From NCBI GenBank assembly GCA_048940445.1, contig JBHLON010000058.1, positions 1 to 14,552 on the forward strand: a stretch of 14,552 nt of DNA, given 5' to 3'. Numbering within the stretch: the stretch's first letter is position 1; each line of letters opens with the position of its first letter. Under the pieces are notes generated by a model, which saw only the letters and a program-made list of their open reading frames with translations, made no database searches and was not told the DNA's origin. This stretch comes from Promethearchaeota archaeon (GTDB taxonomy: Archaea; Asgardarchaeota; Lokiarchaeia; Sigyniarchaeales; SOKP01). The translations under genes were made by a program, and so were the position numbers. Below, one piece after another: positions 670 through 14,552 of the stretch.

Positions 670-2028
670 ATGCCATATAATGTAGCTTTTGATGTTGCAC
701 ATAAACCAAGAGGTAAACTAGATGAGAATCTAACTGAAATGAGAGATTTTCTCAATGATAATGGCTTTTCATGTTATAACTTTTTAGAAACACCTATTAC
801 TCAGTTTTCATTAAAACCTTTTGATATTTTAATTTTTGTATGCCCAGATTTTGCAAAGATTTCACCTATGGAAATAACTGAAATAGTGAATTGGGTTAAA
901 GAAGATGGTGGGGGACTACTTTTATTATCCCATGCTGGAGGTGATAGAGGTAGAAGTAGTAATTTAAGCGAGTTAAGTCAACAATTTGGTATAGCATTTG
1001 AGAATGATCAGGTATTAGATGGGACTTATAACTTAGGGATGGAAAATATGCCTATTATTACCTCATTTATACCACCTCATCCAATAACTAGTGGAATAAA
1101 TTCTTTATGTTATCGTTCTGGATGCTCTCTCACTATTTTAGGATCTGCATTTTCCATAGCATCTTCTAATGAGACTTCAGAACCATTTTCTACCCCATTA
1201 ATATGCGTCTCTGAGGCAGAAAACGGTAGAATTTGCGCAATTGGCAGTTATGAAATGCTCCGTGATAAGGTAAGTGGTGGATTTAATTACGATGAACATC
1301 CAAAATTTATTTACAATTTATTTAATTGGCTTCTTTCTGATTATAGAATAGATTTACGTTCAAAAGGAGAAATCCCAAAAATAGCGCCTCAACCAGCAGA
1401 AGTCCCTACATCAGCACCTCAATATACTACCGAAACGGTAGACTCCATTCCCGTTAGCCAAAAGCCATTAGATATCGATTTTTCAATAAAGATAACGAAA
1501 AAGAAAGAATTAATTGAATTATTAAAAATTTTTCAAAATCAAATTAACAGAATACAGAATACGATTGAAAAATTAATTACTTTTTTAGGAGGATCTAGTA
1601 ATCAATCTGTAAAATTAGAGGGTTCAGAGATTTCTCCCCCTCCTATTCAAAAAGAAAAAGTACCCCAGGATTTAGGGATATTAGAACTCCCTAAAAATGT
1701 TAAGCTAACAGATTTACCCCCTAAACCAGAAAAATTAAAACAACCAGGAGATAATATGTTCATAGGACTTCCATTAGAAGAGAAAGCTGATTTTAAAAAA
1801 GTTCCCAAACTTAAGCCGAAGAAAAAACAAAAGAAAAAAGATTTAATTGCTGAGAAGGATGCTTTAGAAAGCAAGTTAAATTCAGTGCATAATCTATTGG
1901 ACTTTGTTGAAAAAAAGCATAAAGCAGGAACAATTGATAAGAAAGATTATGAAAAACGAATAAATCAGTTGAAAGCTGATATCAATAGAACACAAAACAG
2001 GATTGATGAAATAAATAAAATGCTATAA
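670..2028 (+). CDS. GIFT-domain (GldG/IFT52/DUF4350, class I GATase-like fold) protein with Pro-rich linkers and C-terminal coiled coils
   Basis: The N-terminal ~220 aa contain VAFDVAH, FDILIFVCP, GGGLLLLSHAGGD..SNLSELSQQFGIAFENDQVLD, HPITSGI, YRSGCSL, GRICAIGSYEMLRD and FIYNLFNWL. These are followed by Pro-rich segments, heptad helices and a G-T-I-x-x-x-D-Y (SHOCT-like) end. No signal peptide. Confidence 0.75.
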   Translation: MPYNVAFDVAHKPRGKLDENLTEMRDFLNDNGFSCYNFLETPITQFSLKPFDILIFVCPDFAKISPMEITEIVNWVKEDGGGLLLLSHAGGDRGRSSNLSELSQQFGIAFENDQVLDGTYNLGMENMPIITSFIPPHPITSGINSLCYRSGCSLTILGSAFSIASSNETSEPFSTPLICVSEAENGRICAIGSYEMLRDKVSGGFNYDEHPKFIYNLFNWLLSDYRIDLRSKGEIPKIAPQPAEVPTSAPQYTTETVDSIPVSQKPLDIDFSIKITKKKELIELLKIFQNQINRIQNTIEKLITFLGGSSNQSVKLEGSEISPPPIQKEKVPQDLGILELPKNVKLTDLPPKPEKLKQPGDNMFIGLPLEEKADFKKVPKLKPKKKQKKKDLIAEKDALESKLNSVHNLLDFVEKKHKAGTIDKKDYEKRINQLKADINRTQNRIDEINKML

Positions 2029-8435: not shown

Positions 8436-8447
8436 TTTTTTTTTTTT
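8436..8447 (+). terminator. Oligo-T (T12) archaeal-type terminator
   Basis: A run of 12 T about 45 nt after the TAA at 8390. Confidence 0.55.
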
Positions 8448-8451
8448 CTAT

Positions 8452-8482
8452 AAAAAATTTTATAAATAAACTCATATGGTGA
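8452..8482 (+). promoter_or_regulatory. Putative BRE/TATA box and GGTGA ribosome-binding site for the small ORF at 8492
   Basis: An A-run is followed by TTTTATAAATA (8458-8468). GGTGA at 8478-8482 lies 9 nt before the ATG. The AT-rich background lowers the specificity of the TATA call. Confidence 0.4.
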
Positions 8483-8491
8483 TTTATAATT

Positions 8492-8695
8492 ATGGACACT
8501 AAATTGTCTCAAGATTCGAGGAAAAAAAAAATCCTTCTCATCATCATTGCTATAGTAATTATCATTTCTGCTATTACTGCTGTAATGGTTATGCTATTTT
8601 TCTATTATTCTTATCCCACTGATGGAGAAGGATGAGGATGTGTTATTCTAATACATTATTCTCTAAAAATATTCACAAATTTAATATGGGTATGA
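8492..8695 (+). CDS. Small single-pass membrane protein, candidate selenoprotein (47 aa if TGA 8633-8635 is a stop; 67 aa with Sec at residue 48)
   Basis: Manual translation: MDTKLSQDSRKKK-ILLIIIAIVIIISAITAVMVMLFFYY-SYPTDGEG[TGA]GCVILIHYSLKIFTNLIWV[TGA]. It has a basic N-terminus, one clean TM helix, an upstream GGTGA and a SECIS-like hairpin downstream. Not in the ORF track. Confidence 0.6.
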
Positions 8696-8734
8696 GCCTT
8701 GGGAGTAAATTTTAGTCTCAAGAGGACCCACCCA
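8687..8734 (+). promoter_or_regulatory. SECIS-like / kink-turn RNA hairpin
   Basis: UGGGU-AUGA-GCCUUGGGAGU-AAA-UUUUAGUCUCAAGAG-GA-CCCACCCA. The AUGA (8692-95) and GA (8725-26) form the tandem G-A core. Helix CUUGGGA/UCUCAAG follows, AAA lies 11 nt after AUGA, and the lower helix is UGGG(U)/(A)CCCA. Confidence 0.6.
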
Positions 8735-8869
8735 GCAAGGGTAATAAAAAAATAATATCTCTAAGAATATCTTTTATAGTATGTTTGATTCTTATTTATT
8801 AATTAACAAAAGTCTTTTAAATCGTTAAAACCTCTTAAATTAAATCGCTTCACTAGATGTGAAAAATTT

Positions 8870-12538: not shown

Positions 12539-14552
12539 ATGGTTAGAACAAAATATAAAAAATTTTCCATCTATCTTTTACTACTATTATTAATATCGTT
12601 TTATTCTGTAATTGCTGTAAATTTCCAAGAAATTCGATTCAACCGTCTCAATCCGAAACCAAATAATTATGATGATTGGAATACATTTGATAGAAATGCT
12701 GATAAAAATAATAATGGAATTAGCGATGACTTTGAACCAAGGTTGAAAATTTTATCCGAAGTTGGATTTATTGAAGAAAATTTAGACCAATATAACTCAA
12801 ATATACCACAGATTGATTTTCCATCCAAGAATGTAAAAACTAATACTGTAACTATTACAAGTGATGCTATTCCTATCATTGTTTCTTTTCCTAAAGGTGA
12901 TTTTAAATATGCTTCTTCTTTTTTCGAAGAATTAGGAGGAACAGTTAACCACAAATATTCTATGGCTCTTAATGGTTTTGCAGGAAGAACTGATTATACT
13001 GCACTAAATAAATTCTGTGAAACCTTAAGAGAATCAAATATCCCTTTCTTACTTGAAGAAGACAGAATTTATCATGCGAATTTATATTTTACATCTCGAA
13101 ATATGAATCTCAGACCATATGTTTGGGATACTCTCTCATATAGAGGGGATCCATATAGCTCCATTGCAATAATTGATACTGGAATTGACGATTCCCATAA
13201 TTTCTTCATTCCAGGTTATTCTAATGGCGACTCTAGCTATAAAATAGTTGGGTGGCGAGATGTGATAAATTCATTATCAAGTCCCTATGATGATAATGGT
13301 CACGGTTCTCACTGTGGTGGAATAGCGGCAGGAATAGGGAGCCCTAATTATGATGGAAATGGACGTTCTGTAGCTACTGCTGCTTACAGTTTTAATTATA
13401 CTGGAATCAATCTACCTGAACAGGAAGTTCTGTTTGATTGGACAAGATTTCGAGTAAATACCACAGGTGTAATTGAAATGAATTGTGAATTTGATGATTA
13501 TACGCCAGGTTCAGATGATGCTTATTTTTGGGCTTATCTTTACTATGAAGGTACCCCTGTAGCCTCTTATATAGATAATTCTAGTTCGTGGAGTCACACA
13601 TTATCATTTACGGTAACCACGAGTGATTTTGGCGATTACTCCTTTATGTTTATGATCAGTTTAGTAGATAACACTGGAGATGGCTATTGTAGTGATTTTG
13701 ATGTGAGGTTCAGAAATCAAATTCACTGGCCATTCGATCCTGCTCTTTATGGGAGCGGTGATGCATGGCAAGGAATCGCTCCTGATGCAAATTTGGTGGG
13801 GATAAAAGTGTTAGATCAACAAGGGGGTGGTTGGTCATCAGATATCATTGATGGGATCGATTGGGCAATTGCAAATAAAATGACGTATAATATCACTACA
13901 ATTTCCTTGAGTTTAGGAGGTTCAGCAGGAGATACATCTTTTATTAACGCTGTAAATAATGCTGTAGAAAATGGAATTGTTACCGTAGTATCAGCAGGAA
14001 ATGATGGTCCTGGTTATAATTCTATCGGTTCTCCGGGAGATGCTGATAATGTAATCACTGTGGCGGCTATGAGTATTGATGATGAAATTACTAGTTATAG
14101 CAGTCAAGGTGGAACTTCATATACAGGAAATACTATTAAACCAGATATAACTGCTCCAGGAGGTAGCTTTTACAATGTCCAGATGTTTTCAACAGATACG
14201 AATGATAACGATGCTGAAGGTGTATACCCTTCAGATGTGTATGCAAATGATATGATGGGTGCTCAGGGAACTTCGATGTCTGCTCCTGCTGTTGCCGGAG
14301 CATCAAATCTATTGATTGAAGCGATGGGTGGCCACGAAAGTTGGGGTTATACTGCTACTGAAGCGAAAAAAGTTAAAGCATTGTTATTAATGTCTGCTAC
14401 GGAAACTTATCCACTGTTGAGAGAAACTTATGATCCTAGTTATTCTCCTTTACTTAATCGCGGTGGGAAAGATGCTCATGAAGGATATGGCAGATTAAAT
14501 GTTGATGTCGCTATAGAAGCATATACACAAGAGTTGACATCAGTATCAGATG
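12539..14552 (+). CDS. Secreted S8 (subtilisin-like) serine peptidase; 3' end lies outside the window
   Basis: ATG at 12539 and the frame is open to the window end. It has a signal peptide (MVRTKYKKFSIYLLLLLISFYSVIA) and an I9-like propeptide (YSMALNGFAG). Catalytic motifs are IAIIDTGID (Asp codon 13175), DDNGHGSHCGGIAAG (His 13301), oxyanion VVSAGNDG, KPDITAPG and GTSMSAPAVAG (Ser 14273). Absent from the ORF track because it has no stop in the window. Confidence 0.95.
   Translation, partial: MVRTKYKKFSIYLLLLLLISFYSVIAVNFQEIRFNRLNPKPNNYDDWNTFDRNADKNNNGISDDFEPRLKILSEVGFIEENLDQYNSNIPQIDFPSKNVKTNTVTITSDAIPIIVSFPKGDFKYASSFFEELGGTVNHKYSMALNGFAGRTDYTALNKFCETLRESNIPFLLEEDRIYHANLYFTSRNMNLRPYVWDTLSYRGDPYSSIAIIDTGIDDSHNFFIPGYSNGDSSYKIVGWRDVINSLSSPYDDNGHGSHCGGIAAGIGSPNYDGNGRSVATAAYSFNYTGINLPEQEVLFDWTRFRVNTTGVIEMNCEFDDYTPGSDDAYFWAYLYYEGTPVASYIDNSSSWSHTLSFTVTTSDFGDYSFMFMISLVDNTGDGYCSDFDVRFRNQIHWPFDPALYGSGDAWQGIAPDANLVGIKVLDQQGGGWSSDIIDGIDWAIANKMTYNITTISLSLGGSAGDTSFINAVNNAVENGIVTVVSAGNDGPGYNSIGSPGDADNVITVAAMSIDDEITSYSSQGGTSYTGNTIKPDITAPGGSFYNVQMFSTDTNDNDAEGVYPSDVYANDMMGAQGTSMSAPAVAGASNLLIEAMGGHESWGYTATEAKKVKALLLMSATETYPLLRETYDPSYSPLLNRGGKDAHEGYGRLNVDVAIEAYTQELTSVSD

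Follow-up and report, generated by a model that had tools for sequence, protein, structure and literature searches.

Several selenoprotein genes of Lokiarchaeia, which encode VhuU/FrhA, HdrA-VhuD/FrhD, PrxL and SelD, carry a lokiSECIS element (PMC4989117, PMC11227280). This element consists of an AUGA, a 9-bp stem, an 11-nt loop with leading adenines and a final (A)G, and a GA, and is known to escape standard tools (PMC4989117). In VhuU.1, the stop codon of the gene lies within the AUGA (Mariotti et al., PMC4989117). Huang et al. reported seven Asgard selenoprotein families, which were found by homology search with known families (PMC11227280). In addition, a 2026 review lists 119 prokaryotic selenoprotein families, of which 11 are archaeal (PMC13188914).

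Here we describe a gene of a Promethearchaeota genome whose in-frame TGA at 8633 is very likely decoded as selenocysteine (Sec). It is a conserved selenoprotein gene with a known decoding system, and its family is missing from both catalogues (PMC11227280, PMC13188914). The evidence is from comparative genomics only, and no expression, proteomic or biochemical data support the recoding. Similar to the known lokiSECIS genes, this gene uses the same decoding signal and machinery, and its stop lies inside the AUGA as that of VhuU.1 does. Different from them, its product is an unrelated, membrane-anchored peptide without an enzyme fold, whose length in the family ranged from 45 to 112 aa. The gene meets the testable sequence criteria of Lokiarchaeial selenoprotein genes, except for a clean Cys ortholog.

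Gene layout and the lokiSECIS element

The gene was found in a stretch of 14,552 nucleotides, which as a whole is called the window here. The features of the gene and its flanks are listed in Table 1. Its TGA at codon 48 is followed by GGA and TGT, and the frame then stays open until a second TGA. Standard gene calling gave a 47-aa peptide only. If used, the TATA-like box would yield a nearly leaderless mRNA. A first-pass annotation, made without database searches, had placed a T12 terminator, a TATA-like box and a GGTGA ribosome-binding site upstream of the gene and a SECIS-shaped hairpin downstream of the TGA, with its AUGA at 8692, 56 nt past that TGA. All of these sequences were confirmed at those places. 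The proposed ribosome-binding role of GGTGA, however, is unsupported, because most orthologs carry other bases there. Two other genes of the window were also noted. Positions 670–2028 (+) encode a 452-aa protein that matches the IFT52 GIFT domain (E 3e-12), and a large ORF for a subtilase-like secreted protease at 12539–14551 (+) runs past the contig end.

Table 1. Features of the gene and its flanks, in positions of the window
Feature	Positions	Strand	Remarks
T12 run 3' of the upstream membrane-protein gene	8436..8447	+	likely archaeal oligo-T terminator (function inferred)
A-rich stretch and TATA-like box TTTATAAA (8459-8466)	8450..8466	+	weakly conserved
GGTGA	8478..8482	+	present here; not kept by orthologs
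Read-through ORF	8492..8695	+	ATG at 8492, second TGA at 8693-8695; 67 aa plus stop; residue 47 is the end in gene callers
Basic patch R10-K13	8519..8530	+	precedes the helix; predicts N-terminus inside
Hydrophobic membrane helix, about residues 14-39	8531..8608	+	AlphaFold2 helix 8-39
Gly/Asp-rich flexible linker, residues 40-47	8609..8632	+	between helix and Sec
In-frame TGA, predicted selenocysteine 48	8633..8635	+	TGA in 103/103 curated loci
Cys50 (TGT), probable partner thiol	8639..8641	+	orthologs use TGT and TGC here
Hydrophobic/amphipathic tail, residues 51-67	8642..8692	+	doubles as Sec-to-SECIS spacer; open frame, near-neutral sequence
lokiSECIS core (type I eSECIS-like)	8692..8726	+	its AUGA supplies the stop codon of the gene
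Second small hairpin	8730..8742	+	3 nt 3' of the SECIS core; SECIS of known selenoprotein genes have one too

The UGA of the AUGA is the terminal stop of the ORF. It is followed by a 9-nt arm (8696–8704), an 11-nt loop (8705–8715), a second 9-nt arm (8716–8724) and GA (8725–8726). The arms are paired at seven of nine positions, and the loop has three A among its first five bases and ends with AG. The element at 8692–8726 matches the published lokiSECIS geometry (PMC4989117). An Rfam scan of the window gave no SECIS family match, only two chance snoRNA matches. Judged from the single sequence, the hairpin was unremarkable (z = −1.9), and a strict SECIS pattern matched 17 times in the genome, compared with 2–8 times in shuffles. 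A total of 17 short transmembrane ORFs ending in TGA were found genome-wide, and a SECIS was associated with only two of them, this gene and its paralog; the combination of such an ORF with a SECIS is therefore beyond chance. The paralog (L049:1666–1860 (−), contig C80) was found by the SECIS scan alone. It has U-P-C, a 20-aa tail and its own SECIS, and lies upstream of a probable secreted subtilase-like gene.

A SECIS-like element was present in 102 of the 103 curated loci of the family, and its stem covaries. In 36 diverse copies, 96% of the stem cells were paired and all 8 pairs showed double-sided changes. For the structure as a whole, 78.5% of cells were paired, whereas slid controls gave 36–55%. 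The distance from UGA to AUGA ranged from 34 to 122 nt across the 103 loci. A covariance model trained solely on the family's own SECIS copies ranked the two family genes of this genome first, followed by the elements of VhuD, PrxL and VhuU. In two other genomes, G107 and G060, the same model found the elements of VhuD, HdrA and VhuU. By this model, the family element is indistinguishable from known lokiSECIS. Of the evidence for a working SECIS, which is inferred from sequence alone, the recovery of the SECIS of known selenoproteins is the most independent.

The second hairpin 3' of the core was found in 65 of 65 family copies and in 12 of 12 copies from known genes. Its mean energies were −4.7 and −4.9 kcal/mol, respectively, compared with −1.7 and −2.0 kcal/mol after shuffling. 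A closing helix that forms a three-way junction was found in one genus and in the known genes, and was weak in this genus. The second hairpin was mentioned neither in the SECIS section of PMC4989117 nor, by word search, in PMC11227280, of which the text was covered without figures.

Other SECIS-bearing loci were also observed. A second family with two adjacent in-frame TGA codons is found in this genome at C44:27303–27761 (+) and C63:16537–16962 (+) (L050, L051); its homologs occur in 126 of 161 genomes of the class, nearly all with two TGA codons, and had no Pfam match. A degenerate copy of the 3' half of the SECIS of the C80 paralog lies at C89:5259–5297 of this genome; it is immediately preceded by a CcdA-like gene and followed by a duplicated copy of the same downstream gene. 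In genome G107, L178 (contig C1, SECIS at 1456670) encodes 72 aa with an in-frame TGA between two hydrophobic segments, followed by a lokiSECIS; its protein might be a different micro-selenoprotein. In genome G060, the 119-aa ORF of L173 (contig C3, SECIS at 786865) has an in-frame TGA in a G-U-G-G context, which recalls the HesB-like selenoproteins; these are not among the seven Asgard families (PMC11227280). Finally, SECIS-like elements without an assigned selenoprotein were found in this genome on C20 near 890 (−), where a short zinc-finger-like ORF with an in-frame TGA lies upstream, and at C78:61497–61583 (+), as well as at L177.

Selenocysteine machinery and distribution of the family

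The genome holds a full Sec set, consisting of SepSecS, tRNA-Sec(UCA), EFSec, PSTK and a Sec-type SelD. SepSecS is on contig C61 (E 2e-116), which also carries an EFSec-like GTPase (E 4e-69), and a PSTK-like kinase is on C59 (E 2e-42). The GTPase and the kinase were strong matches yet under the curated cut-offs. The tRNA, whose anticodon is UCA, adjoins SepSecS and scored under the Rfam cut-off. SelD, on C2, contains one in-frame TGA. The VhuU gene of this genome shares the layout of the new gene, with its stop within the AUGA. SepSecS was present in 152 of 161 genomes of the class. Four genomes that bear the gene had no SepSecS match; these MAGs are 79–95% complete.

A search with the single sequence revealed orthologs throughout the genus, which were upstream of trmB in 22 of 23 loci; at the remaining one, the contig ends. 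This position on the same strand as trmB would be compatible with a leader peptide that senses selenium and, through its read-through, regulates the gene downstream. Such a role is very unlikely, as other genera have different downstream genes, often on the opposite strand, and the start of trmB is 175 nt downstream of the stop of the 67-aa ORF.

Two rounds of profile search with manual checks, in which not all matches were inspected, gave 103 curated homologous loci from 93 Lokiarchaeial genomes. They come from seven genera of the same taxonomic family and from three genera that belong to another family of the class. Most genomes of the largest Lokiarchaeial family retain the gene. Three copies, the most paralogs per genome seen, occur in the single-contig genome G107. 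In the sister family f2, no member was found either, including in its three complete, single-contig genomes (G044, G050 and G055), which were searched by profile, RNA model and codon pattern. This result means not found rather than absent, because the RNA model also missed the known SECIS of these three genomes. In 239 genomes outside the class, no convincing member was found. Given that the gene is so short, neither result is proof of absence.

A search of 1.84 billion representatives gave 22 matches, of which the short ones were all cut just before the TGA and the three long ones were unrelated. Public records contain only truncated forms of 44–61 aa, which are named hypothetical. When 22 members were compared with Pfam and NCBIfam, only weak, below-cut-off matches to unrelated single-helix models were obtained, and a PDB sequence search with the 47-aa ORF gave no match.

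A TGA follows the linker in all 103 loci. The terminal stops, in contrast, varied (73 TAA, 21 TGA and 9 TAG). TGA accounts for 343 of the 2294 stops of long ORFs in this genome (about 15%). The count of 103 is partly selected, because among the weak matches the loci listing a TGA were the ones picked. In the unselected ranked lists, however, all strong matches spanning the codon have TGA, and never TAA or TAG alone. The sole copy without TGA (L148:995–1340, genome G114) belongs to a subfamily with an acidic linker. It has C-x-C, retains a SECIS that is read through in frame and carries a 30-nt tandem duplication at the Sec spot; a Cys variant, decay or misassembly are all possible. No clean Cys-for-Sec ortholog was found among the homologs. 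At the partner position, the Cys codon TGT of G116 aligns with a second TGA in G104, which is a Cys/Sec swap.

Membrane anchor, probable partner cysteine and tail

The constant parts of the protein are the basic patch, a hydrophobic helix of about 25 residues, a Gly/Asp linker of mostly 7–17 residues, and Sec, which is the only invariant residue of the family. The helix is poorly conserved, with a mean column identity of 25%. All members have 2–6 K/R before the helix, and the 12 residues before Sec contain on average 0.14 K/R, 0.56 P and 1.65 D/E. A single-pass topology with the N-terminus inside and the C-terminus outside is thus likely, as predicted from charge bias by the positive-inside rule alone. 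The placement of Sec on the outer face, which had been proposed earlier by this rule, agrees with the charge asymmetry across the helix and probably holds, as a prediction only.

A Cys is found within five residues of Sec in 93 of 103 members: at +2 in 56, at +4 in 14, at −2 in 12 and elsewhere within five residues in 11. The order and spacing of Cys ranged from −5 to +4, and a nearby Cys is missing in 10. The Cys codons after the TGA vary synonymously between TGT and TGC. The U-x-C motif of the first-pass annotation is therefore partly confirmed; it is the commonest form, but Cys can also precede Sec or be absent.

The tail after Sec varied from 1 to 61 residues and is in most members hydrophobic and of 10–33 aa. 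In 11 loci it is only 1–2 residues long, in one of which a second TGA cuts it short, and in some members Sec stands alone, one or two residues from the C-terminus. In close pairs, pN/pS was about 0.5 upstream of Sec and over the four codons after it, and 0.93–1.12 further into the tail, beyond codon +5. The frame of the spacer is nevertheless open (mean 0.80 vs 0.42 in shuffled sequences), over 75% or more of its length in 55 of 65 loci. In hydrophobicity, the tail exceeded base-shuffled controls in 52 of 60 loci, which include kin that are not independent. An open, hydrophobic frame with a near-neutral sequence suggests that the tail is translated and that its character is under constraint while its sequence is not. 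It is dispensable in several lineages, which do without it. With Cys in place of Sec, AlphaFold2 predicted two helices, 8–39 and 49–66, with the linker between them (pLDDT 73, pTM 0.42); the confidence of this model is only modest.

These results also bear on the possibility that the TGA is an ordinary stop, so that the product would be a 47-aa membrane peptide and the downstream element a relic or an element with another job. In its favor, databases contain only the truncated hypothetical forms, purifying selection at the amino-acid level is lacking in the tail beyond codon +5, and weak matches were chosen among loci listing a TGA. It is opposed by the unselected strong matches, all of which have TGA, by the synonymous variation of the Cys codons after it, by the open spacer frame and by an element that cannot be distinguished from known lokiSECIS. 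Hence, this possibility is very unlikely.

The claim that the TGA of this membrane micro-ORF encodes Sec very likely holds, supported by the conserved TGA, the SECIS and the machinery. The first-pass annotation had asked for an in-frame TGA in homologs, which was met at 103 of 103 loci, and for tRNA-Sec, EFSec, PSTK, SepSecS and SelD, which are all present in the genome. It had also asked for conservation past the TGA; a Cys codon within the next codons is conserved, and the rest of the tail drifts near-neutrally. The expectation that SECIS would be retained only in TGA-bearing copies was not strictly met, as the single TGA-less copy keeps it, but together with the tandem duplication. None of the conditions that would have refuted the claim, i.e., homologs ending here with TAA or TAG, nothing conserved past the TGA, or missing Sec machinery, holds.

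Cys-rich single-helix proteins of other Asgard classes were considered as homologs and rejected, as the alignment was limited to 10 N-terminal columns. Proteins with a similar layout, in which C-x-x-x-C repeats follow the helix and the end is hydrophobic, were observed at L157:792–1112 (−), L158:143–493 (+) and L149.

Comparison with small selenoproteins and possible functions

Similar to SELENOK and SELENOS, the family has a short N-terminus, one hydrophobic helix, Sec in an unfolded Gly-rich segment and often a partner Cys. Some members end with Gly-Gly-U-Gly-stop, as human SelS does (PMC13524514). Different from SELENOK and SELENOS, the family lacks a long Pro/Arg-rich linker, most members add the hydrophobic tail of 10–33 aa after Sec, and the orientation predicted from charge bias alone is opposite. 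The acidic linker spans few residues, whereas the disordered C-terminal segment of SelK is 52 aa long. Moreover, Sec is 19 residues from the end here, and only about 10 of 103 members carry it among their last few residues. None of 22 members matched the SelK_SelG or SelS Pfam models at E ≤ 0.1, nor did either of two short-tailed members at E ≤ 0.5. A search of five genomes with PF10961 gave no signal at the family loci, and a weak PF10961 match in G044 was not a credible ORF. Kinship of this archaeal protein with SelK/SelS, in which a Sec near the C-terminus would face the cytoplasm and the protein would serve the quality control of membrane proteins, is therefore very unlikely. The like order of parts, the SelS-like ends of some members, a eukaryote-like SECIS and a host in the sister group of eukaryotes speak for it, while the missing Pfam match, the basic residues before the helix and the short acidic linker speak against it. 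As the first-pass annotation had held, the likeness is architectural only; with negative homology tests, the family is an analog of SelK/SelS and not a member.

Small Sec-containing proteins in Table 1 of PMC13188914 include the selenobacteriocin TIGR04081, the mercuric transport family PF02411 and the SO_0444 Cu/Zn efflux family with UxC. Similar to the new family, they are small or membrane-bound and have Sec near Gly or Cys. Different from it, they use in-frame bacterial SECIS elements, and no NCBIfam or Pfam model of these families matched any of the 22 members. No family of this shape is among the seven Asgard (PMC11227280) or the 11 archaeal families (PMC13188914), so the earlier claim that no such archaeal family had been described holds in both catalogues. 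In the literature searched, which left subscription journals mostly uncovered, no description of a membrane micro-selenoprotein family was found. Double-glycine-leader bacteriocins and lipobox proteins were also considered, with the general features of such leaders and lipoboxes as the reference; these readings were rejected given the long membrane helix, the polar spacer and the tails of 1–2 residues.

As shown by comparative genomics, EFSec and tRNA-Sec very likely insert Sec at the TGA at 8633, directed by the 3' lokiSECIS, and the second TGA, too near the element for recoding, terminates the protein. The product would insert with the N-terminus in and the C-terminus out, so that Sec, carried by a short linker of Gly and Asp, would sit at the outer surface of the membrane, and the optional tail may rest on or in the membrane. 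This outward display of Sec is inferred and likely. Without a folded domain, Sec may cycle between selenolate and a selenylsulfide with the nearby Cys, and members without Cys may form a diselenide or mixed bond instead. On the envelope of an anaerobe, such a surface redox tag might reduce or protect lipids, thiols or partner proteins, and might be recharged by a CcdA-like membrane carrier. We favor a selenol/thiol redox tag without a fold, given the flexible linker, the usual presence of a partner Cys and the fact that no residue but Sec is invariant. Its function is only inferred in the absence of biochemical data, and as a whole this model could equally well prove wrong as right.

Evidence from gene context is limited. 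In four genomes of a single genus, genes of one paralog subfamily and a CcdA-like gene lie tail-to-tail; a copy of the latter with 59% identity is present in this genome. This link is weak, as the Pfam match is below the cut-off, the gene is on the opposite strand, and the cases are from one genus and not independent. A link to a neighboring radical SAM gene was rejected as block synteny within one genus. In the loci inspected, no functional gene neighbor is conserved across genera.

The variable spacing of Cys and the members without Cys fit ligand binding as well as catalysis. Thus, Sec, Cys and the acidic residues of the linker might instead serve at the cell surface as ligands for soft metals or metalloids (Hg, Cu, Ag and As), with the protein acting either as a sacrificial trap or as a hand-off site for a transporter. 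The flexible Cys/Sec spacing, the acidic Gly-rich linker, a strongly Asp-rich paralog subfamily, up to three paralogs per genome and the bacterial Sec-containing metal transport families in PMC13188914 favor this reading. We consider it unlikely, as no metal-resistance or transporter gene recurs adjacent to the loci inspected and several members have a lone Sec one or two residues from the C-terminus.

Alternatively, the protein may be a small Sec-donating subunit or processed peptide docked on a larger membrane or envelope complex, with a removable tail as in VhuU. The near-neutral evolution of an open and hydrophobic tail, the 11 loci with tails of just 1–2 residues and the same layout of VhuU in this genome are in agreement with it. 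However, no partner gene is co-located across genera, and a helix with so little column identity would be unusual for a docking surface. This reading is also improbable.

The catalogued archaeal selenoproteins are redox enzymes, subunits of hydrogenase and Hdr, and SelD; a membrane-anchored selenopeptide without a fold would extend them in kind. Given that gene callers cut this gene at the UGA, surveys of Asgard selenoproteomes by homology only miss whole families. Moreover, the gene and its SECIS form a cassette of 250 nt in which the spacing from UGA to SECIS naturally varies between about 40 and 120 nt, which offers material on how eukaryote-like SECIS function without SBP2. For SelK and SelS, whose origin and chemistry are unresolved, the family also provides a concrete point of comparison from archaea. 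A bolder reading, which is no more than possible, is that dedicated membrane micro-proteins display Sec on the outer face of Lokiarchaeia as an envelope system for redox or metal handling, without a described archaeal counterpart. If so, the ancestor of eukaryotic SelK/SelS would have living models in the short-tailed members, which may be related to it.
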